A DNA stretch of 32,000 nucleotides. Origin: Candidatus Electrothrix yaqonensis. GTDB taxonomy: Bacteria > Desulfobacterota > Desulfobulbia > Desulfobulbales > Desulfobulbaceae. The stretch lies in the NCBI GenBank assembly GCA_047651235.1, contig CP178758.1:2580001-2612000 (forward strand). The letters are read 5' to 3'. Under the pieces are notes generated by a model, which made no database searches, was not told where the DNA came from, and was given only the letters and a program-made list of their open reading frames with translations. Position numbers and translations under genes: made by a program. Positions 4,466 through 27,433 of this stretch are shown piece by piece; position 1 is the stretch's first letter, and each line of letters starts with the position of its first letter.

Positions 4466-4538
4466 AACGATGGTGGGGAATATTGTGTCCCGGCGTTGAA
4501 CGGCCGGGACTCATACGTGGGAAGGCCAGCAGTACCGC

Positions 4539-5897: not shown

Positions 5898-6102
5898 ATT
5901 TCTATCCGGGGAAAATTAATATTTGATATTGAGAGGCTGTCTGTTGTTCCGCAGAACCAGATGTCCTTTTTCGGCTGCAGGAAAGAAGGTACCATCTTCT
6001 GCTGAATATTTTTCTATATTTCTGCGCAAACTGCGCTCCTCTTTTGAGAAGCTGTTGTACAATAAGTTTGAGCAACAGGTCAGAGCTGAAACGCTATCAC
6101 TA

Positions 6103-6471
6103 TCAGTTGAATTCAGCTGGCTGCATAGCTTTTACGCCATTTACCGAGAGAATATCATTTGCTAGGTCATCGGCTATTTTCGGAATTAAACGCTTCATAT
6201 TTTCGTCGTATGTTTCGGGCCAGATTTTCTGGAGTTTCTTCCGGCCATCCTCATTTATATACAACGTTTTATCCGGTGTAATCAGCACCATCGCTACATG
6301 ACCGGAATTTTCGTTGACAGCAAACACAAAGTCATCCTTGTCCTTTATCAGCCCTTGATACCAATAATCAATATGCTCCTCCATATCATATTCATAAAGA
6401 GAGTAAGCCATTTTCCCTTTTCTTACGAACGTATTATGCAGGAGGATTTCAATTTCTGTTTTTTTGGTCAT
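6103..6471 (-). CDS. Hypothetical protein (122 aa), no recognisable domain
   Basis: ORF-track entry 6103-6525. I prefer the internal ATG at 6469-6471 (MTKKTEIEILL..), preceded by a purine-rich ggaagggaac stretch. Lies in a lower-GC stretch. Confidence 0.45.
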   Translation of the reverse strand: MTKKTEIEILLHNTFVRKGKMAYSLYEYDMEEHIDYWYQGLIKDKDDFVFAVNENSGHVAMVLITPDKTLYINEDGRKKLQKIWPETYDENMKRLIPKIADDLANDILSVNGVKAMQPAEFN

Positions 6472-11023: not shown

Positions 11024-11677
11024 GGTAGTGGCTCAAACCCGTTGATCCATATTTTTTTATCTGATATATTGTTCCGTCATTATGGAACAGTATATCAAAA
11101 TAACGTGTCGGCATTGCAGTGCCGGGGATCTCGTGAAAAACGGGCGGAGCGAAAACGGGACACAGCGTTACCGCTGTAATGAGTGCGGAAAAAGTTTTCG
11201 GCATGAATACAGGTAAACGCATGGAAACCCGGTGTGAAAAATCAGATCGGACAACAGACTCTTAACAGTTCCGGAGTCGGAGATATCAGCGGGAATCTTA
11301 ATATCTCAAGGAATACCGTGCTGTTCGAGCTGAAAAAAACGCTCGCCGAAGTAAACCCTTATTTTACAGAGCGATCGGACAGTACGTCGGTCGGAATCGA
11401 GGTTGAAATAGGAACGGATGCGGAAGCCGACGAATTATGGAGTTATGTTGGGAATAAGAAAAATCAGAGATGGACATGGTACGCGATTGAAAGAAATACC
11501 GGTGTGATACTCGCATGGCGCAACGGGAGACGGACGGATAAAAGCTGCTCGCTCCTGATGGAAAAGCTTTCCGTATTCCCTGTAACCCGTTATTATACCG
11601 ACGATTGGCAACGCTACAGAAAATATATTCCTTCGGAACGCCATATCATCGGTAAAGCGGACGTTGAGAAGTTTTAA
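11024..11677 (+). pseudogene. IS1-family element relic: InsA zinc-finger ORF, a frame break, then a fused HTH-DDE reading frame truncated at the 3' end
   Basis: Candidate left end ggtagtggctc at 11024. The ORF at 11082-11216 (MEQYIKITCRHCSAGDLVKNGRSENGTQRYRCNECGKSFRHEYR*) resembles the InsA Zn finger. The ORF at 11234-11677 aligns with IS1 InsAB' (..GVGDISGNLNISRNTVLFELKK.., AEADELWSYVGNKKNQRWTWYA, YYTDDWQRY) but stops at IGKADVEKF*, about 60 codons before the expected C-terminus. No right inverted repeat was found. Confidence 0.7.
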
Positions 11678-12157: not shown

Positions 12158-15100
12158 TTGTACCTCCATCAATCCAACCGGCTGGAAAATCTGTTTGACG
12201 GACTCTGTGCAGTCCTTGACGAGCCGCTGACCGAGCCGCTGGCCCCGGAGGTCATTGTGGTGCAGAACCCGGGCATGGCGCGCTGGCTGTCCCAGCAGAT
12301 CGCCCTGCGTACCGGCATCAGCGCCAATTTTTCTTTTCCCTTACCGGCCACTTTTGTCTGGCGGGTCTTTGAGCAGACATTAGGGACGCTGCCGGATCTG
12401 TCCCGCTTTAACCGCAACGTCCTGCTCTGGCGGGTCCGGCGGGAGCTGGAAACGCTGTCGGACGATCCGTCCATGCAGGAAATCCGGGCCTATCTCCGGG
12501 AAGATCGGGACGGGAGCAGACGGTTTCAGCTGGCAGGTAGGATCACTGATCTGTTTGATCAGTACCAGGTATACCGCCCGGCCATGCTGCTGCACTGGGA
12601 ACAGGGCGGCGAGAGGCACTGGCAGGCCCGGCTCTGGCGCAGTCTGACTGCGGCTGACAGAAACCACCGGGCAGCGCTTCTGTACCGTTTTCTGGAGATA
12701 GCTGCCAAGGGTGGACTGCGTACCGATACCCTGCCGGAGCGGATTACTGTTTTCGGCATCAATTCACTGCCTCCGGCCTATCTTGAAGTCATTGATCAGC
12801 TGGGCCGCCTTATTGCCGTCCACGTCTTTCATCTCAGTCCCTGCCGGCAGGCCTGGGATGATATTCTGCCGGAACGTCTGGCGGCCATCCGGCGGCAGCG
12901 GTGGCGGAAAAAGGGAGTCGAGGATGTCAGTAATTATTTTATTACCGGCAATCCGCTGCTGGCCTCTTTGGGAGCTGTGGGGCAGGGATTTTTCTGCCTG
13001 CTTATGGAGCGGAATCCCGTGGAGGTTGAACTGTACGAGGCCCCGGAGTCTTCCGACTCCTCCTGCCTGCTCAGTCTCATCCAGCAGGATATCCTTGAAC
13101 TGCATGATCCCGGCGCTGACCGTCGTGACCGTGGGCAGCAACACAGAATGCTAATTCCGGGTGATCGTTCAGTCCGTTTTCACTGCTGCCACAGTCCCAT
13201 GCGGGAGATTCAGGTGCTCCATGACCGGCTGCTGGATTTCTTTGCAGATGACCCGACGCTGAAACCAGCTGATATCCTGGTAATGGCCCCAGATATCGCC
13301 CTGTATGCCCCGGCAGTGGCCGGGGTGTTCGGGTCTGCTCCTGCCGGGCGGCGTATTCCGTGGTCGATTGCTGACCAGTCCGGTCGGGAGGAGCAGCCGA
13401 TCATTGACGGTTTTCTCTCCATCCTGGAGTTGATCGGCAGCCGTTTCACAGCCCCGGAAGTGATGGCCCTGCTGGAGAATCAGGCGATCCTCCGGCGCTT
13501 TGGTCTTGTCGAGGAGAATATGTCGTTCATCCGGGCCCGGCTCACAGAGGCCGGGGTCCGCTGGGGCCTGGATCAGGAGCAGCGCAAAGAGCAGGGAATG
13601 GAGGGCCCGGCAGAGCATACTTGGGAGTTCGGCCTGGACCGGCTGCTGTTGGGCTGGGTCATGGGGCCGCTGAACGAACCCTGGCAGGGCATTATGCCCT
13701 GCTCCGGGATGCTGAACGATACCGGCTCGTGGCTTGGCGGCCTGACCCATTGTATCCGCTCTCTGCAGGAGCTGCACTGGCAGATGAAAATGCCCCGCCC
13801 GCCTGCTGCATGGGGAGAGCTGTTGCTCCGGCTGACTACAGATTTTTTTGCCGATGACGGGAGAGGCGGGGAACAGGAGGGGCTGCTCCTTCTGCGCCGA
13901 ACCATTACCGATTTCACCGAGTACTGCCGGACAGCGGAGTTTGACAGGGAGATCAGTCTGCCGGTTGTCCGGCACTGGTTCGTTTCCCGACTCTCGGAAC
14001 CGGCAGGCGGGCAGGCTTTTCTGGCTGGCCGGGTGACGTTCTGCAATATGGTGCCCATGCGCTCGGTGCCGTTCAAGGTCATCTGGCTGCTGGGCATGAA
14101 TGACGGGGATTATCCCCGGACCCAGCGGCCCCCGGCCTTTGACCTGATGGCCCGGCAGCCCCGTCTCGGGGACCGGAACCGGCGCGATGATGACCGGTAT
14201 CTCTTTCTGGAGGCCCTGCTTTCTGCCCGGCAGCATCTCGCCATTTCTTGGGTGGGCCGGAATCAGCAGGACAACGCATCCCTGCCGCCTTCAGTGGTGG
14301 TGGCTGAACTGCGGGATTATATCAACCGAGGCTGGATTACTTGGATTACCGGGGAGGCGGCGGAGAAAGAGAAAGACCGATCTCCGGCTGATCTGCTGAC
14401 TGTGGAATATCCGCTGCAGCCCTTCAGTAGGCATTGCTTTGACGGCAATCCTGCAACCGCTTCCTATGCTGCGGAGTGGATGCCCGGCCCGGCTGCTGCA
14501 GGAAGTAATGAAGCTGAGGGTACAGGAGCGTTCGTTTTTGCCGGACAGCTCCTGCCGCCGTCAGCGTCAGACCTGCCGCAGATTGATCTCAGCCGGTTCA
14601 TCCGTTTCTGGAATCATCCAGTCCGCTTTTTTTTGGAACAGCGTATCGGCCTGCGCACCCGGTTCAATGAAGAGCTGCTCCCGGAAAGCGAAGCCTTTGC
14701 CTTGGATCACCTGCAGAAATATTTTCTGAGTGTGGAAATTATGAATAGCCGCCGGGCTGATCTGCCTGATCGGCAGCCGTTACCTGTACTGTATCGGATG
14801 CAGGCGGAAGGCAGGCTGCCCGGAGGAAATTTTGGCCGCATTCTGTGCCGAAAGATGGAGCAGGAAGTCGCTGAGCTTATTGAGGGACTGGAACCGATTA
14901 TCCGAAAACCTGCGGAACCGATGGATATCAGGCTGCAGGTTGACGGGGTACAGCTCATCGGCCAGCTGTCCTCTCTGTACAGCAGCGGCAGGGTCACATT
15001 CCGTCCGGCCACCCTGAAGGCCAAGGATATCCTGCAGCTCTGGATCAACCATCTGGTTCTCCTGCTCCGGCTGCCTGCTGCTGTTGCCCCGATATCTATT

Positions 15101-15442
15101 CATGCTGCACGGAAGCAGACCGTCTGTTTCCAGGAAGTGGATGATCCGCAGGCTGAGCTGGCTGAACTGATCGCCCTGTTCCGCCAAGGGGAAGCAGAAC
15201 CGCTCCACTTTTATCCGAACACCAGCTATGCTTGGGCCAAGGCAAAGTCAGAAGGAGCAAAGTGGAATGCCGCCCGTCGGGTTTGGTCTTCCGGGTATTC
15301 CGGGTTTTCAGGGGGGGAGGGGGAGGATCCGGCCTATGAGATCGCCCTGCGCGCTCATGAACCGCTGGATCAGCGCTTTGCCCGGCTGGCCGGGTTGTTC
15401 AGCCCGATCCTCCGGTATATGGAGGAGCCGACTGCAGGATGA
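12158..15442 (+). CDS. recC: Exodeoxyribonuclease V gamma subunit (RecC)
   Basis: 1094-aa ORF. (M)YLHQSNRLENL......VVQNPGMARWLSQQIALRTGISANFSFPLPATFVW aligns with the E. coli RecC N-terminus (VYHSNRLDVL..VQSTGMAQWL..GIAANIDFPLPASFIW). TTG start, with no obvious SD. Confidence 0.9.
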   Translation: MYLHQSNRLENLFDGLCAVLDEPLTEPLAPEVIVVQNPGMARWLSQQIALRTGISANFSFPLPATFVWRVFEQTLGTLPDLSRFNRNVLLWRVRRELETLSDDPSMQEIRAYLREDRDGSRRFQLAGRITDLFDQYQVYRPAMLLHWEQGGERHWQARLWRSLTAADRNHRAALLYRFLEIAAKGGLRTDTLPERITVFGINSLPPAYLEVIDQLGRLIAVHVFHLSPCRQAWDDILPERLAAIRRQRWRKKGVEDVSNYFITGNPLLASLGAVGQGFFCLLMERNPVEVELYEAPESSDSSCLLSLIQQDILELHDPGADRRDRGQQHRMLIPGDRSVRFHCCHSPMREIQVLHDRLLDFFADDPTLKPADILVMAPDIALYAPAVAGVFGSAPAGRRIPWSIADQSGREEQPIIDGFLSILELIGSRFTAPEVMALLENQAILRRFGLVEENMSFIRARLTEAGVRWGLDQEQRKEQGMEGPAEHTWEFGLDRLLLGWVMGPLNEPWQGIMPCSGMLNDTGSWLGGLTHCIRSLQELHWQMKMPRPPAAWGELLLRLTTDFFADDGRGGEQEGLLLLRRTITDFTEYCRTAEFDREISLPVVRHWFVSRLSEPAGGQAFLAGRVTFCNMVPMRSVPFKVIWLLGMNDGDYPRTQRPPAFDLMARQPRLGDRNRRDDDRYLFLEALLSARQHLAISWVGRNQQDNASLPPSVVVAELRDYINRGWITWITGEAAEKEKDRSPADLLTVEYPLQPFSRHCFDGNPATASYAAEWMPGPAAAGSNEAEGTGAFVFAGQLLPPSASDLPQIDLSRFIRFWNHPVRFFLEQRIGLRTRFNEELLPESEAFALDHLQKYFLSVEIMNSRRADLPDRQPLPVLYRMQAEGRLPGGNFGRILCRKMEQEVAELIEGLEPIIRKPAEPMDIRLQVDGVQLIGQLSSLYSSGRVTFRPATLKAKDILQLWINHLVLLLRLPAAVAPISIHAARKQTVCFQEVDDPQAELAELIALFRQGEAEPLHFYPNTSYAWAKAKSEGAKWNAARRVWSSGYSGFSGGEGEDPAYEIALRAHEPLDQRFARLAGLFSPILRYMEEPTAG

Positions 15443-15573
15443 ACGGCAGAATGGAGGAGTATAAGAAGCATGTTTTTCAAACAGCTTCTAATGGTCAAAC
15501 GCCCGCTGAAAGCGCCTTTTCTGACAGCCCGTTCTCCTTCGCATTCGCTGGCCGGGAAAACGGTTCGGTTTGA
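15439..15573 (+). pseudogene. Possible recB start stub (speculative)
   Basis: The ATG overlaps the recC stop as ATGA (15439-15442), the usual arrangement for a translationally coupled next gene. The reading MNGRMEEYKKHVFQTASNG.. then runs out of frame through the rsmJ relic and stops. I cannot align the stub to RecB by eye. Confidence 0.2.
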
Positions 15574-15577
15574 TGTG
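15494..15577 (+). pseudogene. 84-nt relic of the 3' end of an rsmJ-type methyltransferase gene (direct repeat of 28139-28222)
   Basis: Encodes VKRPLKAPFLTARSPSHSLAGKTVRFDV, identical in protein to the C-terminal region of the intact gene. 80 of 84 nt are identical, and the 4 differences are all synonymous third positions (AAA/AAG, AAA/AAG, ACA/ACG, GTT/GTG). Confidence 0.85.
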
Positions 15578-15588
15578 ATATGTCCATG

Positions 15589-16656
15589 TCATCCGCTATT
15601 CTTCTCTCGTCTTGCTTTATTAAGGGTGTCGAGAAAGTTTGCCAACCAATTCAAATCAATATTCTCTTCAGGAGAAACACCATTCAGTTGTTCCTCCCAT
15701 TTATCTATGAGCGGATCAGATGGACCTAAGAGTTTTTTCATTTCCTTCTTTACAGAATCTCTTTTAAGCAATTCAATCACCATGCTGATATCATTGAATA
15801 ACCAGTTATATGCATCTTTCCATCTGAAAAGATTAAGCTCGTCATTTGTAGGTTTAAGTTCTCTGACTGTTTTTGCTGGCCAATTCCGTCTTTTTGTATA
15901 CGCAAACATTGAGAATGTAAACCATTCATTTGCTACATTAAACAATTCATCGGGATTTTCGGAAAAGTATCCCTCCTCTTTAGCAAGGATTTGTAACCGT
16001 TCTCTAAACCAAACTGTAGCATGTTCTATATTTTCCTTTTTTTTAGTTATTATTAATGCTCTGTACTTGATTTGAGCTAAAGAAAAAGAGGTCATTTCCT
16101 GTAACAGCCTATAATGTTTGATGTTTGCTCTGGAATCTATACCCTCTTTACCTGCACTTGTATAAAGTGCGCGATGCTTCCTATACTCTTTGTCTGCCTC
16201 AATAAATTTATCACTGTCTATATAATCTAATATGTTCTTTTTTACATGATTATGGAATCTGCTGAAGTTTCTGAAGAAAATAAATTGAAGGCCGATTATA
16301 TTTCTCGCCGAGCCTTCTATCTTGTAAGGAGCCAATAAATAATTGGCAAGAGAGTCCTTGTTGTTATACTTCCATGATATTGTTGTATTTTGCTCCGATG
16401 GAATGTTTAAAAAAGTAAAGTTTCCCCCTTCATCTAGACTACTTGCTCGTGGCCCACTGTTATTTATCAATTTTATAACTATTTTTTCGTGATCAGGTGG
16501 TGACAGATCAATTGCCTTCCCATCTGGTGACAGATCAATTACCTTCCCATCTAACTTCATACTTGTTGCAGCGTAAATTAAAGAGCAGTCTGCAAATAAT
16601 ACTGATGTTATTATAATAATAGTCAAAATAACGCTATTTTTTGTAAAGATAAGCAT
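15589..16656 (-). CDS. Hypothetical exported or membrane-anchored protein (355 aa)
   Basis: SD-like gggggа-type purine run (gtgggggaccggaa) before the ATG at 16654-16656. N-terminal hydrophobic segment (VILTIIIITSVLFADCSLIYAA). Tandem 9-aa duplication DGKVIDLSP/DGKAIDLSP. Short beta-sandwich-like stretch (GGNFTFLNIPSEQ), then a W/F-rich helical C-terminal region. No family recognised. AT-rich. Confidence 0.6.
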   Translation of the reverse strand: MLIFTKNSVILTIIIITSVLFADCSLIYAATSMKLDGKVIDLSPDGKAIDLSPPDHEKIVIKLINNSGPRASSLDEGGNFTFLNIPSEQNTTISWKYNNKDSLANYLLAPYKIEGSARNIIGLQFIFFRNFSRFHNHVKKNILDYIDSDKFIEADKEYRKHRALYTSAGKEGIDSRANIKHYRLLQEMTSFSLAQIKYRALIITKKKENIEHATVWFRERLQILAKEEGYFSENPDELFNVANEWFTFSMFAYTKRRNWPAKTVRELKPTNDELNLFRWKDAYNWLFNDISMVIELLKRDSVKKEMKKLLGPSDPLIDKWEEQLNGVSPEENIDLNWLANFLDTLNKARREKNSG

Positions 16657-17287
16657 TTCCGGTCCCCCACGTTACGTATTCCATTTTTTGAAACTTAAAT
16701 GGTTTCGGTTCTTCATTTTTGCATCTTAATGAAAGATTTGTCATATCTAACTCTTTTTCTATCCAAACTGCACCCGATCCCCAAAGTCCTTTTTTTAAAG
16801 GAAGTTTATGAGATTGGTGGTTGTTCCCTCCTTTCCATCTTACAGTGAAGTCCTTACAAGAAATTTGATCATTCTCAAAGAAAAATACAGTTTTTCCATT
16901 TGAAGCAAGATGATTGGTAAATCCAGTTAGAGTTAATATAGAAGCAGTAAAAAAGATCCCTCCCGTAACCAAAGAAGAATATTCTTTCTTCAAGGAAAGC
17001 ATGATCATGAGCAAGACAAAAAAAGACAGTCCGCTTATAAGGGTAAAAATTGTCAATTTGGGAGAGTAAAAAGTATACGCATCCCCTGTCATTAATATAA
17101 GTAAATATATTACCCAGATAGATATTACATATATCACCGATGTCAGTGGCAGAAGCTGTTTATTTACGTTTATTGGCGATGCTTTAAACATCAGCGGTAT
17201 CAGACCCGATATACTCACGAAAATTGGCGGTAAGATCCCTGCAATATTATTGATAATTTCGACCATTTTAACACCCGCAGCTAGCAT
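16634..17287 (-). CDS. Hypothetical integral membrane protein (about 4 TM segments plus a soluble C-terminal domain of about 90 aa)
   Basis: 217-aa ORF with four long hydrophobic stretches, then ..FFFENDQISCKDFTVRWKGGNNHQSHKLPLKKGLWGSGAVWIEK... Overlaps the downstream gene by 23 nt and the upstream gene by 20 nt. The start could instead be the internal ATG (MVEIINN). Confidence 0.55.
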   Translation of the reverse strand: MLAAGVKMVEIINNIAGILPPIFVSISGLIPLMFKASPINVNKQLLPLTSVIYVISIWVIYLLILMTGDAYTFYSPKLTIFTLISGLSFFVLLMIMLSLKKEYSSLVTGGIFFTASILTLTGFTNHLASNGKTVFFFENDQISCKDFTVRWKGGNNHQSHKLPLKKGLWGSGAVWIEKELDMTNLSLRCKNEEPKPFKFQKMEYVTWGTGNAYLYKK

Positions 17288-17498
17288 TAGCAGCTTGTTG
17301 CCACGTATTGTATCTGTTTCCTTTCCAATACCAATAGTTGCCTATTTTTGTTATTTCTTGATAATCTATTCCGTTGCATTTTATCAAAACGACATTTTGC
17401 TCTTGTTTCTCCACATTATAGCAGTCTTGTGCTGTAGCGGGGAGAAGGAATGCTATGAAAGAAAAAGAGACAAGAAAAAACGAGACGTTATTTTTCAT
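17268..17498 (-). CDS. Small secreted cysteine-containing protein (76 aa)
   Basis: Signal peptide MKNNVSFFLVSFSFIAFLLPATA-QD. The mature part of about 53 aa has 4 Cys, is W/Y/N-rich and ends in CGC. No SD seen. First gene of the overlapping three-gene set. Confidence 0.5.
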   Translation of the reverse strand: MKNNVSFFLVSFSFIAFLLPATAQDCYNVEKQEQNVVLIKCNGIDYQEITKIGNYWYWKGNRYNTWQQAANASCGC

Positions 17499-18045
17499 TT
17501 TATTTATATGTAGTTAGGGTTAAATAGGCAAGCCTAGTCAAAATAATGCTGACAGTATGGCTGATATCAGTTCTCATATCAATAAAAGCTACGTCGCGCC
17601 TCTTATCGATATTTATTACTTAATGGTACTGCCTGGAAAATATATTGTCAATATTAAAACCGAAGAAAAATATAAAGCCATGCTATGTCAATACGATATA
17701 TCATAAAAATGATAAGTTTTAAGGGTGAGATGTACAAATACGATCTCCAGATGAAAAGAAAAAATCCAATCATTCTGGGTTTCAGATTGATGGAACGGTC
17801 TGGATTCAGTTATGCGCCCGTGAAATTTTCTGACGATTTTAGGAGTTACGCAGTTGAAAACAAGATGACTATGTTTGGTTAATATCTACAAGGTATTAAA
17901 GAGTTACAGTTTAACTCCGACGGATGCTGAAATTATGGGTAGGCAGCAAATATTATTTTTTTGAATTACGGCGCATAACGTGCTTTATTGGATACAAGGG
18001 TTTCTTTTCCCGGCCCGAACGGCTCAAAAATACAACGGCGGAACC

Positions 18046-19395
18046 ATGAAACGATATTATATCCATACCTGCCTCCTGTGCCTGATACCGGTGATGCTGA
18101 CCGGTTTCTCCGCCCTCTCCGCTGAAAAAAAACAGGACACGCTGTCCACCTATCTTGAACAGGCGCTCGCCAATAATGACACCCTGCTGGCAGCGCGTGC
18201 CGAACTTCGGGCTGCCTCGGAAGAAGTGCGTCAGACCGGGGTGCTGCCGGACCCGAAACTGGAAGTCCAATATTATCTGGAGCCGATTGAGACTAGAACC
18301 GGGCCGCAGCAGGCAGCTTTGGGGATCGGGCAGGGAGTGCCTTGGTTCGGCAAGCTGGCTCTGATGCGCAAAATGGGAAACCATGACGAGGCCATTGCCG
18401 CAGCCAAGGTCGCCGCAGTGGAGCTGGATGTGGCCCGGCAGGTAAAAGAGGCATATATCAAGTATAGCTTTCTCGGTCGGTCACAGCAGATTGTTGCCGA
18501 CAACCTTGAACTGCTGCAGTATCTTGAAGGAGTAGCCCGTGACCGCTATACCGGCGGCAAGGCGACCTATTTCGATGTGCTCAAGGTGCAGGTGGAGCTG
18601 GCTCAAACAGAGGATAAGGCAAAAACGTTGACGGATCAGGCCGTACCGCTGCGTGTCCGGATCAATAACCTTCTGGGTACTGAACCGGAACGCCGATGCC
18701 CTGTACCGGAGCAGCTGCCCACGGTTGTGCTACAGAAAAAGGAGGAGCATATTTATGCTGCTGCGCTGAAAAATGCCCCGCTGCTGACGGCAGCTCAGGA
18801 ACGCATTGCCAAGGCACAAACCGGCAGGGAGCTGGCGGAAAGGGATTTCTTTCCGGATTTCCAGGTATCCTTGAAAACCATTTTTACCGGGTCAGCAGAG
18901 TACGGCGATCCGCCGGACAGCGGTTCAGACCCGATCATTGCCGGAGTAAGTATGAACCTGCCCATCTTTCGTGACCGTCGCCATGCCAAGGTGGCTGAAC
19001 AGAAGGCAGCTGTAAGCGGGGCGCAGGCTATGCTGGCGGAACAGGAACGGGGGATACAAAATAAAATTGAACAGGGCCTGTATGCCTACCGGGATGCGGA
19101 GCGCAGAGTCGCCCTGTATCAGGATGAACTGCTGCCTAAGGTCAGACAGCAGCTGGAGGTGGCAGTCAGCGGATTCCAGAGCGGCAAGAATTCCATCCTG
19201 GAAATGATTGATGCGGAAAAAAGTCTGCTGACCTTTGAGCTGGCTGCAAGCCGTGCCTCGGCGGACAGGTCTCTTGCCGTTGCCGGACTGGAGGCACAGG
19301 CCGGAGTTGTGCTGGCAACCTGGACACAAAAAAAGGATCAGAATAATATAAAAGAAGAAGATGAGAATGAAACTGAAAGCCGTTCTGACAGTTGA
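18046..19395 (+). CDS. TolC-family outer membrane efflux protein (CusC/CzcC-like)
   Basis: The internal ATG at 18046 gives the signal peptide MKRYYIHTCLLCLIPVMLTGFSALSA. This is followed by the typical OEP start (L..YLEQALANNDTLLAARAELRAA) and two coiled-coil/beta repeats. Heads a metal-efflux-type operon. Confidence 0.8.
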   Translation: MKRYYIHTCLLCLIPVMLTGFSALSAEKKQDTLSTYLEQALANNDTLLAARAELRAASEEVRQTGVLPDPKLEVQYYLEPIETRTGPQQAALGIGQGVPWFGKLALMRKMGNHDEAIAAAKVAAVELDVARQVKEAYIKYSFLGRSQQIVADNLELLQYLEGVARDRYTGGKATYFDVLKVQVELAQTEDKAKTLTDQAVPLRVRINNLLGTEPERRCPVPEQLPTVVLQKKEEHIYAAALKNAPLLTAAQERIAKAQTGRELAERDFFPDFQVSLKTIFTGSAEYGDPPDSGSDPIIAGVSMNLPIFRDRRHAKVAEQKAAVSGAQAMLAEQERGIQNKIEQGLYAYRDAERRVALYQDELLPKVRQQLEVAVSGFQSGKNSILEMIDAEKSLLTFELAASRASADRSLAVAGLEAQAGVVLATWTQKKDQNNIKEEDENETESRSDS

Positions 19396-19457
19396 GGACG
19401 GTTGAAAGATGCCTTCGCTGTCAGAAATCACATCAACACGAATAAAAGGAGTTCATC

Positions 19458-19787
19458 ATGCGTATCATTAAACCATTCGGTCTTGCTGTATTTTGTTTTT
19501 TTATGCTGCTGAGTTTTGCCGGAAGTGCCCTGGCAGCACCACAGACAACCTGTCCGGTCATGGGCGGTAAGATCAATAAAGAAATTTATGCGGATTATCA
19601 GGGCCAGCGGGTATATTTTTGCTGCGCAGCCTGTCTGCCTAAATTCAACGAAGATCCTGAAACATACTTGGCCAAAATGCAGGAAATGGGGCAGGAGCCG
19701 GAGGCAGTTCCGGTGGCAGGCGATGACGCGGCTGCGGCCCCGGCCGAACCTGCCAACCATGAAGGTCATGCCGAGCACGCGAACTAA
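19458..19787 (+). CDS. Periplasmic YHS-domain metal-binding protein with His-rich tail
   Basis: Signal peptide, then the YHS pattern TCPVMGGKINKEIYADYQGQRVYFCCAACLPKFNEDPETY. The C-terminus is NHEGHAEHAN. Confidence 0.75.
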   Translation: MRIIKPFGLAVFCFFMLLSFAGSALAAPQTTCPVMGGKINKEIYADYQGQRVYFCCAACLPKFNEDPETYLAKMQEMGQEPEAVPVAGDDAAAAPAEPANHEGHAEHAN

Positions 19788-19805
19788 GACGACGAGGAAA
19801 ACATT

Positions 19806-21896
19806 ATGCGGAATCTGCAGAGTCTGTTTTTTATAGGAGCTTTGTTTCTGCTGCTGTTTGACGCCACGGTGACCTTGTCGGCAGAGACAGCGGATTCCGC
19901 GCATGAGCATGGTCCGGAGACCGTCTGGACCTGCTCCATGCATCCGCAGATCCAGCTCCCGGAACCGGGTCAATGCCCGATCTGCTTCATGGATCTGATC
20001 GAGGTTGAAAAACAGAGCAATGAGGCGCGGCAGAGCCTGCGCCAGATTTCTTTTGACAGCCGGGCAAGAAAATTGGCAGAGATTGAGGTGCAACCGGTCA
20101 TCAGGGGAAGTAAGGATACAGATGCCGCACTTCAGATCTTTGGGCGGATCGATTACGATGAAACCAAGGTCAGCACCATAACTTCCTGGGTGGACGGCCG
20201 GATTGACAAGCTCCTGGTTGATTACACCGGTGCGGCTGTCCGGCACGGACAGGCAGTGGCCGAAGTGTACAGCCCGGATCTGTTCACGGCCCAGGCCGAG
20301 CTGATTCAGGCTGTAAAGGAAGTACAGCGGGTCGGAAAGTCAGACAATACTCTGGTCAAAAAAATGGCTCGCCGGACCCTGGATGCCGCGCGGGAGAAAC
20401 TGCACCTGCTGGGGATCGGCAAGCAGCAGCTGCAGAAGATGGAACAACTGGAACGACCTGCCCAACGCATTACTCTGACCGCTCCGCTGGCTGGCATTGT
20501 TATTGAAAAGCATGTCAACGAAGGCGTGTATGTCAAGACTGGCAATCCGGTGTACACCTTGGCCGATCTGTCAAAGGTCTGGGTGATCCTTGAGGTCTAC
20601 GAGTCAGATCTCAAGGCCGTTGTCATGGGGCAAAAAGTCGGTTTTACAGTTGAGGCCTATCCGGGCACCGAATTTCAGGGCAAGGTGGTCTATATTGATC
20701 CGCTGGTAGATGAAAAGAACCGGACCGTCCGGGTTCGTCTCAATGCGGACAACAGAAAAGGAAAATTGAAGCCGGGCATGTTTGTCCGGGCAGAGCTTGT
20801 TGTCCCGGCAGGCGGGCAGGGTCAGGCACCGCTGCTGATCCCGGCCTCAGCACCGCTGCTCACCGGAAAACGTGCGCTGGTTTATGTTCAGGTGCCGGAT
20901 AAACCGGGAACCTATATCGGACGCGAGGTGGTGCTCGGTTCGCGACGCGGGGAATTTTATGAAGTGAAAAGCGGGCTTGAACAAGGTGAGCTGGTAGTTG
21001 TGCGGGGCAACTTCAAGATTGATTCGGCCATTCAGCTGCAGGCCCGGCCGTCCATGATGAATCCTTATACGGGTGAGGCCGGAGCAGCTGAGACAAAGGG
21101 AAAAGCACTGCCTGAACTGTTTGCCTCCCGGCTGGATCTGCTCAACCGGAGTTTTTTCGAGCTGTCCGGAGAGGTGCATAAGCTGGAGAAGGCCCGATAT
21201 CGTCCGGCTCTGCAGGGGTTCAGTCATGCCTTGACTACCATCACAGAGGACGGGCTGAAGGGGGACGAGAAACTGAGTTGGCAGGAATTCGCCATGCTCC
21301 TGCAGAATGACGTCATCTTACTGCAGGAGGCAGAGGATGATCAGGAGGTGCTGCAAATCTATGCCGAGTTTGCTGAACACTTCCAGCAGGTCAGGGAACG
21401 TTTTGCCCTGCTGGATGTCCCGGCAGCCCAGGCTGCTTCGCCGGAACTGCAGGCCAAGGTGGGAGAGCTGCTCAAGGGCTATCTGATCCTCCAGCAGAAC
21501 TTGGCAGCGGATAATGAACAGGTGGCGCAGGACTCAGTTGCTGCCCTTGTCCCCCTGACTGAAGCCCTCGGAACGGCTCTTCAGCAAACAGGAGCAGGAG
21601 CAAAAGAAGCTGGGGAACTGGCTGCCCGCTTGAAAGAGGGAATAGAGAAACTGGCCGCGACCAAGGGTCTGGAAGCGATCCGGACCGCCTTTTTTCCCTA
21701 CAGCCAAGCCGTGGTGGAGGCCGTGGAGACCTTCGGCAGCAATGACCACACCTCCTGGTATGTCCACTTCTGCCCTATGGCCTTTGATAATACCGGGGCA
21801 ACCTGGCTGGCTCCGTCAGAGGAAATTAATAATCCCTATTTCGGAGCCATGATGCTCCGCTGCGGCGAGGTGCGCAGGCAGCTGACGCAGGAGTGA
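19806..21896 (+). CDS. RND efflux periplasmic adaptor (CusB-like) with an N-terminal heavy-metal-binding domain and a C-terminal DUF3347-like extension
   Basis: 696 aa. HMBD motif WTCSMHPQIQLPEPGQCPICFMDL. HlyD/MFP core (lipoyl, coiled-coil hairpin, beta-barrel; ..VYSPDLFTAQAEL..LTAPLAGIVIEKHVNEGVYV..). The C-terminal part of about 230 aa ends with WYVHFCPMAFDNTGATWLAPSEEINNPYFGAMMLRCGEV, which I recognise as the DUF3347 signature. Confidence 0.8.
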   Translation: MRNLQSLFFIGALFLLLFDATVTLSAETADSAHEHGPETVWTCSMHPQIQLPEPGQCPICFMDLIEVEKQSNEARQSLRQISFDSRARKLAEIEVQPVIRGSKDTDAALQIFGRIDYDETKVSTITSWVDGRIDKLLVDYTGAAVRHGQAVAEVYSPDLFTAQAELIQAVKEVQRVGKSDNTLVKKMARRTLDAAREKLHLLGIGKQQLQKMEQLERPAQRITLTAPLAGIVIEKHVNEGVYVKTGNPVYTLADLSKVWVILEVYESDLKAVVMGQKVGFTVEAYPGTEFQGKVVYIDPLVDEKNRTVRVRLNADNRKGKLKPGMFVRAELVVPAGGQGQAPLLIPASAPLLTGKRALVYVQVPDKPGTYIGREVVLGSRRGEFYEVKSGLEQGELVVVRGNFKIDSAIQLQARPSMMNPYTGEAGAAETKGKALPELFASRLDLLNRSFFELSGEVHKLEKARYRPALQGFSHALTTITEDGLKGDEKLSWQEFAMLLQNDVILLQEAEDDQEVLQIYAEFAEHFQQVRERFALLDVPAAQAASPELQAKVGELLKGYLILQQNLAADNEQVAQDSVAALVPLTEALGTALQQTGAGAKEAGELAARLKEGIEKLAATKGLEAIRTAFFPYSQAVVEAVETFGSNDHTSWYVHFCPMAFDNTGATWLAPSEEINNPYFGAMMLRCGEVRRQLTQE

Positions 21897-21925
21897 GTAT
21901 CCGGAGCCTCGTTATTCGGTGGTGA
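21893..21925 (+). pseudogene. Possible 10-codon stub of the missing RND pump gene (cusA)
   Basis: The GTG overlaps the cusB-like stop as GTGA. It reads VSIRSLVIRW*, loosely like HME-RND N-termini (MI..lI.ws..N). Very short, so tentative. Confidence 0.25.
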
Positions 21926-22043
21926 AGTCAGGGGTGGAAGAAGGTATAGCTCGCGAGGGGATAGAAGGTCAGTAAGTCGGGACTGAAGAATCCCCTTTGC
22001 GTAGGCTGCGCAGAAAGGCGGCCCTGCTTCCCATCCGGGTGAT

Positions 22044-22949
22044 TCAGCACCCTGCAGCGTTACAGGCAAACCGGGCAAGCAGTTCCTCCCGGTACCGCGC
22101 CACAAAGGCATCAATATCCTGCTGCCAGTCCTGCATACAATGTACCCCATGTTTTTTCAGCAGGCTGTTTTCCAGGATGGAATTTGCCGGGCGGCGGGCC
22201 GGAGTAGGGTAGTCCGTCGTGGAGCATGGCTCCAGGGAAAATGCCGCATCCATTGCGGTTAAAAAGTACCTTGCTCCCTCGTACCAAGTACAGTGTTTCT
22301 CTGCCGTGGCGTGGGCAATTCCGGTGAGGTCGGAGGCCAGCAGCCGGTTAATCTGCCGGGCCAGGGTCATGGTCCAGGTCAGGGAGCCGTACTGATCGTT
22401 GACCACCCGGACAGTGCGGGCATGATCGTTTATGGCCAGGCGCAGCATGGTTTTGAGGAAGTTATTGCCGCCCATCCCATACAGCCAGGCCGTGCGCAGA
22501 ATCAAAAAATTATCCAGCCGCTCCGCAACAGCCTGTTCACCGGCTAGCTTGCTCCTGCCGTAGGCAGAGACCGGCGAGACAGTATCCTGCTCGACATACG
22601 GTTTCGGAATCGGTCGGTTGCCGTCAAAAACGTAATCCGTTGAAATATGAATGAGCCTGCACCCGGTTGCAGCACAGGCATCAGCCAGATTGGTCGGGCC
22701 TTGGCAGTTGACGGCCTGACAGGCCTCCTGCTCGGTCTCGCATCTGTCCACTGCCGTGTAGGCGGCGCAGTTGAGGACAACATCAGGCTGCAGTTTTTTT
22801 ATTTCCTGCTGAACCTGTTCTCCTTGGGTGATGTCCAGCTGCTGCGAGGTCCGGCTATGCACGGTGTGCTCGTTCTGCATGACCTGAAGACAGTCCTGGC
22901 CGAGCTGACCGCCTGCACCGGTTATCAAAATGGTCATTGGAGTATTCAT
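22044..22949 (-). CDS. rfbD: dTDP-4-dehydrorhamnose reductase
   Basis: Rossmann start MTILITGAGGQLG, YAAYTAVD, the STDYVF motif and the right length. The true start may be the ATG at 22937. Its start overlaps the rfbA stop (TAATG). Confidence 0.85.
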   Translation of the reverse strand: MNTPMTILITGAGGQLGQDCLQVMQNEHTVHSRTSQQLDITQGEQVQQEIKKLQPDVVLNCAAYTAVDRCETEQEACQAVNCQGPTNLADACAATGCRLIHISTDYVFDGNRPIPKPYVEQDTVSPVSAYGRSKLAGEQAVAERLDNFLILRTAWLYGMGGNNFLKTMLRLAINDHARTVRVVNDQYGSLTWTMTLARQINRLLASDLTGIAHATAEKHCTWYEGARYFLTAMDAAFSLEPCSTTDYPTPARRPANSILENSLLKKHGVHCMQDWQQDIDAFVARYREELLARFACNAAGC

Positions 22950-23839
22950 TATTCTGCGTCTCCGTCAGGCACAGTCTCCTTCAGCATGGTCATCAGATAT
23001 TGACCGTACTGATTTTTCAGCATCGGCTCGGCTGTCCGGGCCACCTGATCAGCCGTGATATAGCCCAGCCCATAGGCGATTTCTTCCACGCAGGCGATCT
23101 TAAGTCCCTGCCGCTCCTGCACTGCCTGCACGTAACTGGATGCCTGCTGCAGCGATTCATGGGTGCCGGTATCCAGCCAGCAGAATCCGCGTCCAAGCAG
23201 CTCCACGCTCAGTTTGCCCTGCTGCAGATAGCAGGTGTTGATATCTGTGATTTCAAGTTCACCCCGTGCCGACGGCCGGATGGAGGCGGCGATATCCACC
23301 ACGCTGTTGTCGTAGAAATACAGTCCCGGTACAGCGTAGCGTGATTTGGGCTGCTTCGGCTTTTCTTCGATATTGATGACCCGTCTGTCCTTATCAAATC
23401 CTACCACGCCGTAGCGCTCCGGGTCTTTGACCAGATAGCCGAAAATGATGCCGCCGTCCGTGAGCCTGCTGCAGCGCTGGACAATACCGGCAAAACCGTG
23501 CCCGAAAAAGATATTGTCCCCTAGGACCAACGAAACTGCATCATTACCAATGAAATCTTTGTCGATGAGAAAGGCCTGGGCCAGACCTTCAGGGCGGGGC
23601 TGTTCCGCATAGGAGATATTGAGACCGAGTTGTTCGCCGCTGCCGAAGAGCTCGGTAAACCGGGGCAGGTCGGTCGGAGTGGAGATGATCAGGATATCCC
23701 GAATTCCGGCCAGCATGAGCACGGACAGCGGGTAATAGATCATGGGTTTATCATAGACCGGGATCAGCTGCTTGCTGATCACCCTGGTCAACGGATACAG
23801 CCGGGTTCCTGAGCCGCCTGCAAGAATGATTCCTTTCAT
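22949..23839 (-). CDS. rfbA: Glucose-1-phosphate thymidylyltransferase
   Basis: The internal ATG at 23837-23839 gives [55 protein letters not shown], the canonical RmlA N-terminus. The 5' extension in the ORF track (to 24016) is not homologous. Confidence 0.9.
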
Positions 23840-23918
23840 GTAGTTCTCCGAAGCTATCTCAGAATACTTGATTTGACCACATCTTCGACATAATGGAGGT
23901 TCTTTATCATTGCCGCAG

Positions 23919-24161
23919 TCAGCGTTTCCAGCCCGGCCTGTTTGGCCTCGGTGGCCTGCTGGCAGCCTGGGCATCTTCTGATGCCATAGTACCCTCAAGC
24001 TCGATGAGGAAATCAATATCGCTGCTCTCGTTGAAATTCTCCGTGAGCGCGCTGCCGAAAACGCTCAGACGCTTGACGCGGTATTTTTGACAGATGCCGG
24101 TGATCTTCTGCTGATACTTTTCAAGGGTGATCATATAATCGGCCTTCCGGTTGAGAAACAT
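23919..24161 (-). pseudogene. Nucleotidyltransferase (MNT-type antitoxin-like) fragment, 3'-truncated
   Basis: [46 protein letters not shown] carries the G-S-x(n)-D-x-D minimal nucleotidyltransferase motif. After ELEG the reading bears no resemblance to the family and runs into the rfbA upstream region. No HepT partner is present. Confidence 0.45.
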
Positions 24162-24262
24162 TCATCTGTCGGAGCAGTCGGAGTATAATGAATAGGAAGC
24201 AACAGCTATGCCGAAAACAAGTAGAGGCAGGCAAAAATCAGCAGAAGCAGGGCGGTGCACGG

Positions 24263-24676
24263 TTATTTTTTCAGCAGAATTTGGAAACCAGCCTGCTCGA
24301 AATGATGATCTGTTGAAAATACTTCCCTTGCACCCATATCTCTTGCAACGAGGATACTGATGCAGTCAACAAATCCCCAGTCTTTATCCGCCATCTGCTT
24401 GAACTGCTGAAAACCACGTTCAATCAGGGCCTCATCCAGAGCAATGCACAGCCATTTCTCAGAAGCTCTGACAGCCTCAATCATTTTCACCGCAGCCGGT
24501 TTCAGACTGACCGCGCTGAATGCATTGCCGAACTCAAGCAGAACTGCATCTGTTGTCACAAGATTTTGTTGCGATTGCTTCAGCTCAGCTGCTGTGCTTA
24601 CAGCTTGTGCATGAAACGTATCTCTCTTGTTGCCAATGGCAATAAAGGCGGAGGTGTCAACAAAAACAGATTTCAT
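24263..24676 (-). CDS. vapC: PIN-domain ribonuclease toxin (VapC family)
   Basis: 137 aa. Acidic PIN residues sit in the expected places (VFVDTSAF, LLEFGN, GFVDCIS, FSTDHHF). A 4-nt ATGA overlap joins it to the upstream small ORF. Confidence 0.85.
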   Translation of the reverse strand: MKSVFVDTSAFIAIGNKRDTFHAQAVSTAAELKQSQQNLVTTDAVLLEFGNAFSAVSLKPAAVKMIEAVRASEKWLCIALDEALIERGFQQFKQMADKDWGFVDCISILVARDMGAREVFSTDHHFEQAGFQILLKK

Positions 24677-24912
24677 GAACGCTTTGCTGTGCCATAAAGA
24701 TAATGATCATGATTTTCAGCAAAATCTTCAATTCCGGTATCAACTGAGAATTCCTCGAAATCGAGGGTGTCCCAAGGATCTGGCTGTTCCGAAGCCTTCT
24801 TCTCTATTTTGCAGGACACGCCCTCCCGTGCAAAAAGTTCCCGTATTCCTGAGATCAGTCGTGCTGTTCTTTCCGTTGGCAGGATGTCTGATATATTGAT
24901 TGTGAGCTGCAT
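24673..24912 (-). CDS. Putative cognate antitoxin (VapB-like, family not recognised)
   Basis: 79-aa acidic ORF translationally coupled to the PIN gene. No clear RHH/AbrB/Phd motif visible by eye. Confidence 0.55.
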   Translation of the reverse strand: MQLTINISDILPTERTARLISGIRELFAREGVSCKIEKKASEQPDPWDTLDFEEFSVDTGIEDFAENHDHYLYGTAKRS

Positions 24913-25258
24913 GTCATAGATAGCTGTTGTCAGATAAACTTTATTTGAGCAGCATGGCCCTGCCGCTTCCGCAGCATGATAAACAACTACTTTATGTTGC
25001 GGAAAATTTCAAGAGGAAACAGTGCGGTTTTCTCTTTTTCGGGTCAACATGAAGCAGAGGAACGGATGAAATAGGATTCGTTCCTGCAACCCGCCCCGCT
25101 GTGCCCCGTCAATGCGCGGTTTGGGGAATGGATGTGATACCGGCGGGGTCCTTTTTACATTACGATTTCGATTTTACATTTACTTTTTAAAGTTAATATG
25201 TTATATAGCTTTACACTAATCGATATAATATTACTTGTGACTTCGTGGAGGTATTCAA

Positions 25259-26353
25259 ATGGGTACGGCTGAACAAAGAAAGGATTTTTTAGAAGTTTAT
25301 AAGGATTATGTTTCGAATGTATTGCAGCCTACTAAGTGCGAAGTAAAAAACATCCTCAAGAAGTGGAAAAAGAAAGAAACTTGGAATGTAGAGGGTGATG
25401 TATTAGCTTACCCTTCCCCTATTAGTTGGTATGCTACTCGTATTAAAAGGCCGGAGTCGTTAGTTGACAAGATAACTAGTCAGACAGATACCTTCCCGGA
25501 TGGATTGGTTAAATCATCTCTTTGGATAATTAACGATGCTTTTGCTTGTAGAATCATTGTTTTTTGCTTGCAAGATTTAAGGCTGATACATGATATAATT
25601 ATGTCTTCAGATTTTTTTGACATTTCCCAGAAAGACGAGCCTTATGTCTTTGATTTAGATGAAAAGTTCATTGAAGCTTTGGGGCTGCAGAGGCTAAAAA
25701 GAAAAGGGAGAGATACCGGTTATACAGCGATACATTATATAGTTCGATTAAAAGAAAGTTCAGTTCCAATGTCAAAAAGACCTTGGTTTGAAATACAGGT
25801 TAAAACATTAGTTCAACATGCTTGGAGTGAAATTGAGCATTTGATTGGTTATAAACCAATAGGGTCTCTCTCTTCGTTATCAGAAAGCAAAAGGCAGCAG
25901 TTTAAAATTATCAGTTCTCATTTGAATGCAATTGATGAACATTTCAACTTGCTTTTTGAGGACGCCCTATTTAAACAGAAGACTGTTAAATATAATAGTG
26001 AAAGCATAATAACATCAGAGGCTTTACCAAAGATGTTGAGGAGCAAAGGTATAGTTTGTTCGCAGAATAAGATAGAAAAATCTATAAGGATATTTCGCAA
26101 TTATGGGATTTATAAAGTTAAGGATTTTGAAGGCGCTGTGACGATGGACCGGATAGAAATTATTAAAAATATATTTGAAGATATTTTAGGGTGCGCTCCA
26201 ACTTCTGATGATTTGATCGTTAACTTGGCATCCAGCAAAGAAATAGAGGATGATTCTCTTTTGCCTGATTTTATCAAAGTGCAGATAGCTTACAAATCTA
26301 CAAGTGATAAAATGAAAAGCATAAGGTGTGACTGTGATGAAAAGTCGAGCTAA
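25259..26353 (+). CDS. RelA/SpoT-domain (small alarmone synthetase-like nucleotidyltransferase) protein with an uncharacterised C-terminal extension of about 150 aa
   Basis: Synthetase-fold motifs are in order: RIKRPESLVDKI, INDAFACRIIV, GYTAIHYIV, FEIQVKTLVQHAWSEIEHLIGYK. There is no HD hydrolase or TGS/ACT region. SD ggaggt lies 7 nt before the ATG, with a perfect TATAAT at 25224-25229. The gene is visibly AT-rich relative to its flanks. Confidence 0.8.
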   Translation: MGTAEQRKDFLEVYKDYVSNVLQPTKCEVKNILKKWKKKETWNVEGDVLAYPSPISWYATRIKRPESLVDKITSQTDTFPDGLVKSSLWIINDAFACRIIVFCLQDLRLIHDIIMSSDFFDISQKDEPYVFDLDEKFIEALGLQRLKRKGRDTGYTAIHYIVRLKESSVPMSKRPWFEIQVKTLVQHAWSEIEHLIGYKPIGSLSSLSESKRQQFKIISSHLNAIDEHFNLLFEDALFKQKTVKYNSESIITSEALPKMLRSKGIVCSQNKIEKSIRIFRNYGIYKVKDFEGAVTMDRIEIIKNIFEDILGCAPTSDDLIVNLASSKEIEDDSLLPDFIKVQIAYKSTSDKMKSIRCDCDEKSS

Positions 26354-26381
26354 AAAGTAGTTCAAATTTGATCTGACAGAT

Positions 26382-26418
26382 ACCGGGTGCGTGCTTGGCG
26401 CGTTGTCCGGTTTTTTAT
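26382..26418 (+). terminator. Putative rho-independent terminator after the RelA/SpoT-domain gene
   Basis: Imperfect GC-rich hairpin accgggtgcg...cgcgttgtccggt followed by tttttt (26411-26416). Confidence 0.4.
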
Positions 26419-26531
26419 TCGCTGATCTGATAGAATTTCGATCCATGCGAACCGGAGTTGAAAACTCCAGCATATTTTCGTATGATGCAGCATCTCTGAT
26501 GTTTCCTTGTTCAACCTGTAATACCGGTTCT

Positions 26532-27401: not shown

Positions 27402-27433
27402 GCACAGGGCGGGTCGGTCAGAGCGGAGCACGT

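Follow-up and report, generated by a model that had tools for sequence, protein, structure and literature searches.

A rare AT-rich islet in a cable-bacterium relative carries a horizontally acquired operon with two previously undescribed protein families

Here we describe a three-gene cassette in a 32,000-nucleotide (nt) stretch of the Candidatus Electrothrix yaqonensis genome (assembly GCA_047651235.1, contig CP178758.1, positions 2,580,001 to 2,612,000 of the forward strand). This whole stretch is called the window below, and all positions in it are counted from its first letter. The three minus-strand genes, named A, B and C in the order of transcription, lie together in a small AT-rich islet between GC-rich neighbors. 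We find that these genes are real and form an operon of horizontal origin, with B and C as a conserved core pair preceded by an optional first gene, A, and we show that B and C represent two previously undescribed protein families. The explanation we favor for these observations, namely a foreign operon of products working outside the cytoplasm, with B and C joined in a complex that has a role in conflict, is a tentative proposal whose chances, taken as a whole, we put somewhat below even. The genes and the islet that holds them are as follows:

15589–16656, minus strand: gene C, a 355-amino-acid (aa) open reading frame (ORF), core member of the module

16634–17287, minus strand: gene B, a 217-aa ORF as listed and 210 aa when started at Met8, core member of the module

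17268–17498, minus strand: gene A, the ORF of a 76-aa precursor, accessory member of the module

15578–17990, no strand: the AT-rich islet of 2.4 kilobases (kb) with a GC content of 0.350, comprising the trio and about 490 nt of apparently non-coding DNA upstream of it

The islet is set apart from its surroundings by its base composition. The GC content is 0.593 in the left flank (recC) and 0.553 in the right flank (efflux genes), which bears out the contrast between an AT-rich block and GC-rich flanks drawn in the first-pass annotation. At third codon positions, the GC content is 0.32–0.38 in the trio versus 0.60–0.67 in recC, OEP and cusB.

The three minus-strand ORFs of 355, 217 and 76 aa reported in that annotation are confirmed in position and length. 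Under a chance model with the base composition of the islet, 7.5% of codons are expected to be stops, and the probability of an open frame is about 1e-12 for at least 355 codons, about 5e-8 for at least 217 codons and about 3e-3 for at least 76 codons. Probabilities this low mean that B and C are not chance ORFs. The notion that the genes are spurious, i.e., chance open frames in AT-rich junk DNA, is therefore already refuted for B and C, and we give it practically no credence. What can be said for it concerns gene A, which lacks a strong Shine–Dalgarno site and is missing from the genome's own annotation, being called only on a 12.7-kb contig. It is contradicted both by the values for C (1e-12) and B (5e-8) and by full-length homologues with 17–37% identity in which motifs and gene order are conserved. 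As far as sequence can tell, the reality of gene A is backed by its homologue rather than by the length of its ORF.

The listed ORFs overlap by 23 nt (B/C) and 20 nt (A/B). Alignment with homologues places the start of B at Met8 (position 17266), in agreement with a 210-aa call in the protein database, and we regard this as the probable true start. With Met8 as the first codon, A and B would lie 1 nt apart (TAAAATG) instead of overlapping by 20 nt and would still be tightly packed; the corresponding gap in the homologous locus L007 is 3 nt. C starts behind a Shine–Dalgarno-like site (GGGGGA), and its first 23 nt coincide with the last 23 nt of B. The cassette previously described as overlapping is thus a compact operon with a genuine B/C overlap, whereas the A/B overlap is replaced by a 1-nt gap once the start is corrected.

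Homologues of the module are few and distant. A word-indexed search of 5.8 billion protein clusters matched A, B and C each only to itself. An exhaustive HMMER scan of 1.84 billion representatives recovered eight full-length relatives of C (303–360 aa, 17–32% identity, E values of 8e-22 to 5.6e-6), together with partial matches to repeats in two large proteins. A homologue of B (200–224 aa) lies immediately 5′ of C in seven of the seven lineages with readable upstream DNA (the window, L003, L005, L006, L007/L092/L093/L094, L008/L009 and L010), and the junction between the two genes is either an overlap of 4–23 nt or a gap of 1–32 nt. Locus L004 is uninformative for B, as its contig begins inside C. 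In L011 (67–2462) we observed a C homologue with neither a signal peptide nor an upstream B gene, which is probably a decayed copy of C; a 325-aa ORF adjoining it has by eye the look of an IS4-family transposase and gives no Pfam match.

The counterpart of gene A is an uncalled 80-aa ORF just before B (L007, 3245–3487; also in L092 and L093). Between the first and the last Cys, the two proteins give an ungapped alignment of 51 aa with 37% identity and a pairwise E value of 2e-11. The four Cys are all conserved, as are the WYW cluster and a Q-AA motif, and the C-terminus reads CHCE in the homologue where the window protein has CGC. No A-like ORF is present upstream of B in L005, L006 or L008, and in L008 the place of A is held by a signal-less 348-aa Glucosaminidase+Amidase_2 protein. 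An all-against-all ORF comparison across the loci revealed no further recurring gene, and a profile search of the window and about 95 loci found no extra copies of A, B or C. Co-occurrence of the genes as a trio, raised in the first-pass annotation as a check, therefore holds for the B–C pair, which recurs in other lineages, and for A in only one further lineage (L007/L092/L093). The three proteins are thus not strictly orphans; they match no known family, but homologues do exist: eight distant ones for C, at least six for B and one lineage for A.

The homologous modules belong to a few environmental bacteria and lie in unrelated contigs with a whole-contig GC content of 0.35–0.49. The module is AT-rich relative to its own flanks in three of the four loci where this could be tested (L092, L005 and L008, but not L006), and one homologous locus adjoins a type IX secretion system (T9SS) Por_Secre_tail protein. 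The module is very rare, with about nine lineages among 15 billion proteins. A tblastn search of C against phage and plasmid collections gave no match, scans of IMG/VR with B and C patterns found none, and metagenome scans returned nothing or only the L008-type locus again, the full C alignment being too divergent for pattern scans. Within lineages, we observed only 2–6 single-nucleotide polymorphisms, too few for a ratio of non-synonymous to synonymous substitution rates. The occurrence of AT-rich modules in unrelated contigs and their extreme rarity support repeated horizontal transfer of the module from a poorly sampled source.

Two of these loci deserve a brief description. The L008 locus (612–1658; 3529–6297) and L009 are very AT-rich; here the hydrolase precedes B–C, and a 922-aa MutS protein follows on the opposite strand, with a weak C-terminal DUF968 match (E 0.0019, below the Pfam threshold). 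In L092 (944–8241), the trio follows an operon of OEP, membrane fusion protein (MFP), resistance-nodulation-division (RND) pump and TauE genes, and its GC content is about 0.10 lower.

One alternative is that the module is what remains of a phage-type cassette for lysis or release, with B as a holin-like membrane protein, C as a spanin-like periplasmic protein and either cargo A or an endolysin-like hydrolase in front. A signal-less Glucosaminidase+Amidase_2 protein directly before B–C and the small size and four transmembrane (TM) helices of B would suit such a cassette. Against this, PHROGs gave no match, none of the loci contains phage genes, and no relatives were found in the phage and IMG/VR collections; in addition, C greatly exceeds the known spanins in size and differs from them in structure, and A carries a Sec signal itself. 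We consider a lysis origin very improbable.

Analysis of the three proteins agrees with their earlier description as a secreted four-Cys protein ending in CGC (A), a four-TM protein (B), and a signal-anchored protein with a beta-sandwich-like segment and a helical domain (C). A has a Sec-type signal peptide with the hydrophobic region VSFFLVSFSFIAFLL followed by an ATA|QD cleavage site. Its mature part of about 52 aa contains four Cys (C-x15-C ... C-x-C), with CGC at the C-terminus, and the WYW aromatic cluster. A lipoprotein reading of A and C was rejected, as the residues before Cys do not fit a lipobox.

The Cys pattern of A bears on a further alternative, in which the operon handles metals in the periplasm: the terminal CxC and N-terminal Cys of A would be the ligands of Cu(I), Ni or another thiophilic metal, and B–C would be its membrane partner, acting with the adjacent efflux operon. 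In fact, both A-bearing lineages have the trio beside an OEP-containing efflux operon, and the four Cys of A, including the C-terminal CxC, are conserved. However, the OEPs of the window and L092 are only 21% identical and not orthologous, the trio differs in GC content from the efflux genes in both loci and, in the window, is transcribed divergently from them, and B–C occurs in other loci with neither A nor efflux genes. Moreover, two disulfides are the simpler explanation for four Cys in a periplasmic mini-protein, and A matches neither CusF nor CopC nor any other metallochaperone family in Pfam. Metal handling is thus an improbable function for the operon.

For B, four TM helices are predicted, followed by a C-terminal domain of about 90 aa (residues 132–216) that is modeled by AlphaFold2 as an eight-strand immunoglobulin (Ig)-like beta-sandwich (five-sequence alignment; predicted local distance difference test score, pLDDT, 65.9). 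The motifs LPP before TM1, W58, FY73-74 (loop 2) and GFTN122-125 (where TM4 ends) are invariant. There are 2–4 Lys/Arg in loops 1 and 3, compared with 0–1 in the N-terminal tail and loop 2. In two B proteins, the beta domain contains a pair of Cys, which is in keeping with a location outside the cytoplasm. A relationship of B to DsbB/VKOR-like proteins was considered and rejected, since there are no conserved Cys.

C begins with an N-terminal hydrophobic helix or signal peptide; AlphaFold2 (nine sequences, pLDDT 74.8, predicted template modeling score 0.70) places a beta-sandwich at residues 32–114 and an all-helical part at residues 123–354. In this model, a seven-strand sandwich is followed by 13 helices that form a Trp-rich, TPR-like alpha-solenoid. 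Seven of the nine C proteins, the window protein included, have a hydrophobic N-terminal segment and a plausible signal-peptidase site, and the other two (P0005 and P0012) lack the N-terminus. Seven residues are invariant in the alignment (A2): P110, R199, W216, W245, Y253, W259 and D289. Residues 46–96 of C match six repeats of the large protein P0006 (E 3e-9), which themselves are CarboxypepD_reg/SdrD_B repeats (E 2.6e-66). Judged by this transitive similarity and the predicted sandwich fold, the assignment of a CarboxypepD_reg-like domain (PF13620) to C holds, and it is the one assignment at family level that does. At the same time, C matches no Pfam family at E<=1, none of the nine family members matches any, and the PF13620 gathering score is not reached. 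One further feature of C lies in the linker after the signal peptide:

16498–16551, minus strand: a near-perfect 27-nt in-frame tandem duplication in gene C (DGKVIDLSP/DGKAIDLSP), probably recent

Database searches place none of the three proteins in a known family. A, B and C have no match in Pfam, NCBIfam, PADLOC or PHROGs, and the members of the C and B alignments likewise give no consistent match. Against PADLOC-DB 2.0, the three proteins match 0 families at E<=1, and PADLOC returned nothing meaningful for their neighbors in the homologous loci. Among PDB sequences, neither profiles nor single sequences found a match below E 0.29. The sensitive profile and structure searches advised in the first-pass annotation, run in part here (AlphaFold2 and Foldseek on B and C), again led to no known family: Foldseek found no match below E 1e-3 for the C model in PDB and BFVD or for the B model in PDB. 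The nearest, non-significant neighbors of C are TPR, SNAP, 14-3-3 and Sel1-type scaffolds and CBM/DUF3823-type sandwiches, and those of the B domain are CBM41 and Ig-like modules. The novelty lies at the level of family and operon, and the folds are ordinary: a four-helix membrane bundle, an Ig-like domain, a transthyretin-like sandwich and an alpha-solenoid.

These folds are the starting point for an alternative without conflict, in which the module is a scaffold of the envelope or cell wall. B would tether C, a TPR-like adaptor whose sandwich is of a carbohydrate-binding-like kind, the pair would organize or modify peptidoglycan or another envelope polymer, and A, by virtue of its WYW cluster, would be a small glycan-binding accessory. 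The Foldseek neighbors of both proteins, non-significant as they are, point in this direction, as do the peptidoglycan hydrolase that adjoins B–C in L008 and the invariant Trp, Tyr, Arg and Asp residues of C. On the other hand, no structural match is significant, no enzyme domain is present, the argument from the aromatic cluster of A is one of sequence reasoning, and the rarity and foreign composition of the module speak against a general role in the envelope. We therefore regard such a scaffold as an unlikely explanation.

The edges and surroundings of the islet bear on its origin. The proposal of a horizontally acquired module in the first-pass annotation is upheld by the foreign composition, the compact operon and the presence of the module in unrelated contigs; a recB stub as the scar of this insertion is not supported. 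Nor is a classical integrated island, as no integrase, tRNA or repeats flank the 2.4 kb and a repeat of rsmJ at the left edge has the wrong polarity for a simple integration. Inverted and direct repeats were sought at the islet termini and none were found; the islet contains no tRNA and no Rfam family, a terminator scan gave nothing beyond chance, and no integrase or recombinase gene lies between 15.4 and 28.3 kb. The left junction involves three features:

15492–15577, plus strand: rsmJ relic, an 86-nt copy of rsmJ codons 248–275 that abuts the left edge of the islet

28137–28222, plus strand: partner copy of this repeat, inside intact rsmJ (27398–28255; PF04445)

15439–15573, plus strand: a 44-aa ORF (the "recB stub") that overlaps the recC stop, rejected as a recB remnant

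The relic and its partner on the same strand share 95.3% nt identity, and 28 of 28 residues are identical (tblastn E 1e-16). The rsmJ relic noted in the first pass is therefore real, with its intact counterpart 12.6 kb away. The four mismatches all fall at third codon positions, a pattern that, with only four sites, is suggestive of divergence while the sequence was still within a working gene. As a direct repeat, the two copies bracket 12.6 kb that include the trio, the efflux operon, rmlA/rmlD, the PIN, RelA_SpoT and M48 genes and rsmJ itself. The relic lies upstream of intact rsmJ, which is the wrong polarity for simple integration: the 3′ relic of an attachment-site target would be expected downstream. 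A Logan contig of 12,667 nt spans 15535–28201, i.e., from one repeat copy to the other, and this public short-read contig breaks because a 38-nt exact run is common to both rsmJ copies. We therefore rejected strain heterogeneity as the reason for the break at 15535. Also rejected was a 201-aa plus-strand ORF (15470–16075) as a gene, since it is the frame of the rsmJ relic continuing antisense to C.

The 44-aa ORF, formerly taken for a possible recB stub, reads MNGRMEEYKKHVFQTAS... and is mostly the rsmJ relic in another frame; it lacks the RecB N-terminal motif that we looked for (xLDPLxLPLxGxxLIEASAGTGKT). Comparison with other recC loci gives a different account of the missing gene. recB follows recC in none of 12 loci of the Electrothrix/Electronema group and likewise not in the window (recC, 12158–15442), whereas in 12 of 12 non-cable loci (11 Desulfobulbaceae-type and 2 Chromatiales-type among them) it overlaps or directly follows the recC stop. 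As recB is missing across the cable-group loci, its loss predates the islet and is not a scar of insertion. It seems that the recBCD operon has come apart in the clade of cable bacteria. The window RecC is 66% identical to that of several Candidatus Electrothrix, 57–60% to Electronema and about 45% to Desulfobulbus, and the host is thus a relative of cable bacteria. Profiles of A, B and C found the module in none of about 80 cable-bacterium and Desulfobulbaceae recC loci. These relatives share no neighbors with the window around recC, so the empty site is not reconstructable.

On the other side of the trio, the islet continues into the region upstream of the operon:

17499–17990, no strand: operon upstream region, with promoter-like hexamers and two small ORFs

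17557–17706 and 17685–17882, plus strand: the two small ORFs, with no Pfam or PHROG match and no counterpart in other loci

Minus-strand promoter-like hexamers lie at 17651–17623 and 17582–17554. A promoter scan of this region gave 8 promoter-like sites versus 8.9 expected, no excess over chance.

We next consider what the operon might do. In the explanation that we favor, all three products would act outside the cytoplasm. B probably adopts an N-out/C-out topology in the inner membrane with its LPP, FY and GFTNY motifs and the Ig-like domain in the periplasm, and holds C in a ratio of about 1:1; we consider this part fairly probable. The topology is a weak inference from the basic residues of loops 1 and 3, which the N-terminal tail and loop 2 lack. 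Given this topology, the conserved motifs and the sandwich would face the periplasm. The roughly 1:1 complex is suggested by the conserved coupling of the B and C cistrons. In this way, B would anchor C to the inner membrane on its periplasmic side.

A second part of this explanation, that the module serves conflict between microbes, is possible but doubtful. The first gene would encode a secreted effector or ligand, which here would be the disulfide-stabilized, aromatic-rich A and in L008 the signal-less peptidoglycan hydrolase, and B–C would be an envelope-protective complex for immunity or exclusion, able to persist alone as an orphan protective pair. We are led to a conflict-type reading by (I) transfer as an islet and a patchy, very rare distribution, (II) the variation of the first gene (A, the Glucosaminidase+Amidase_2 protein, or nothing) before a constant B–C, (III) the decayed copy in L011 beside a transposase-like ORF, and (IV) the PDC-S33-like RelA_SpoT and PIN genes elsewhere in the same 12.6-kb stretch. 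A looks like part of a bacteriocin/immunity locus in its architecture, and in architecture only: a 76-aa Sec precursor is followed 1 nt after its stop by the start of the four-TM B. No homology to a bacteriocin or immunity family was found in Pfam, NCBIfam or PDB.

Several observations weigh against this conflict role and the complex on which it builds. A, B and C match no bacteriocin, immunity, toxin or defense family, and no exporter is present that would carry A past the periplasm. As an immunity protein is usually specific for a single effector, one B–C family with two unrelated first genes is awkward for immunity. The hydrolase of L008, at a distance of 97 nt from B, may be a mere neighbor. 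As for the topology of B, the 15 residues after TM4 also carry 1–4 positive charges, and the orientation is only weakly decided. Finally, the AlphaFold2 models of B and C are of moderate confidence and are built on 5–9 sequences.

The same setting can be read as anti-phage defense or superinfection exclusion, with B–C as a sensor or blocker in membrane and periplasm that acts on phage adsorption or DNA entry and A as a dispensable addition. Such a function would suit a small islet that is AT-rich and very patchy in its distribution, and the two-gene core, with the four-TM protein first, can be likened to other modules of a four-TM protein and a partner of about 300 aa. A candidate defense gene (PDC-S33) and a PIN gene lie 7–8 kb away. 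In the window, the candidate gene (E 4.5e-12) is 8 kb off, with the PIN gene beside it, and the other loci are too short or have unrelated neighbors. Against an anti-phage role, those neighbors are not defense genes, B and C have no PADLOC match, nothing related is found in PHROGs, phage genomes or IMG/VR, and no effector domain (nuclease, NADase or pore) is recognizable. An anti-phage function is accordingly unlikely in our estimation.

Returning to envelope protection in microbial conflict, we also put forward a bolder version as a speculation of low likelihood: B–C, with A as optional cargo or ligand, would be an unrecognized conflict system in which a membrane-tethered TPR/Ig scaffold guards the envelope against an effector or invading element and crosses phyla on tiny AT-rich islets from an almost unsampled reservoir.

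Other parts of the window show that the islet is not its only AT-rich segment. Further patches lie at about 0.8–2.8, 6.0–6.8, 11.6–12.0 and 25.2–26.4 kb. Truncated transposase ORFs are found in or beside these other patches at 1474–2040 (plus strand, DDE_5) and 11234–11677 (plus strand, IS1 family). Given several AT-rich patches and fragments of insertion sequences, we view the genome as a mosaic, and the truncated transposases are consistent with a heavily rearranged one.

At 25259–26353 (plus strand), a 364-aa protein with a RelA_SpoT domain lies in an AT-rich patch of its own (GC content about 0.35) and matches PDC-S33 of PADLOC (E 4.5e-12); just upstream on the other strand is a PIN-domain gene (24263–24676, minus strand). 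This patch may be a toxSAS-type defense islet or a toxin islet. Immediately to the right of the AT-rich islet, an operon at 18046–21896 (plus strand) encodes OEP, a YHS-domain protein and a 696-aa CusB-like protein (HMBD, HlyD_D23 and DUF3347 domains). No RND pump gene follows it, and the next genes, rmlD and rmlA, are on the opposite strand. Elsewhere, at 3008–4465 (minus strand), a 485-aa protein fuses an HhH-GPD glycosylase domain to an Exo_endo_phos (Xth-like) nuclease domain.

In sum, the operon and its core pair are a solid finding, and the function is conjectural and would not yet surprise a specialist. If B–C has a defined activity, the pair would amount to two new protein families and possibly a new envelope-level module of immunity or exclusion. 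It would also show that very small integrase-free islets carry modules of this type from phylum to phylum, in this case into a cable bacterium; to our knowledge, cable bacteria have not yet been grown in pure culture. With the pair delimited, start codons corrected, about nine members aligned and moderate-confidence models at hand, the families can be named and tested, and the practical value is modest as yet.

Comparison with known systems places the module beside several of them. The closest in architecture form two groups, Sec-dependent bacteriocin/immunity loci and two-gene membrane modules for defense. The sandwich of C, by its match to the P0006 repeats, and the alpha-solenoid behind it resemble CarboxypepD_reg/transthyretin-like domains on periplasmic TPR-like scaffolds. 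C differs from these in staying below every Pfam threshold and in having a helical domain, with invariant R, W, W, Y, W and D residues, that matches no known family or structure.

Loci of Sec-dependent bacteriocins with membrane immunity proteins, such as those of the lactococcin 972 and enterocin P types, are compared here by architecture only. They share with the window a compact, horizontally mobile operon in which the gene for a short Sec-exported, disulfide-containing protein stands just before that for a polytopic membrane protein. Sequence or profile similarity is absent, however, and the conserved core is B–C here rather than A–B. The present host is a diderm, with no outer-membrane export route for A, and a third, large periplasmic protein is obligatory.

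Kiwa (KwaA/KwaB) and RexA/RexB of phage lambda are two-gene, membrane-anchored phage-defense modules. B–C resembles them in pairing a four-TM protein of about 200 aa with a partner of about 300–350 aa, in its small islet of foreign composition and in its patchy occurrence. By contrast, B and C of the window have no PADLOC match, no link to phage was found, and C has a signal peptide and is predicted to be extracytoplasmic, whereas KwaB and RexA are cytoplasmic.

The closest parallel at the level of the islet as a whole is with the genomic islets known as "morons". The islet described here differs in being without prophage, integrase, tRNA or terminal repeats, and a single site-specific integration would not leave the rsmJ fragment where it is, upstream of the intact gene. 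What it has in common with them is 2.4 kb at 35% GC in a neighborhood of about 57% GC, a self-contained operon with its own upstream region, the scar of a gene fragment at one edge, and a module that is missing from relatives.

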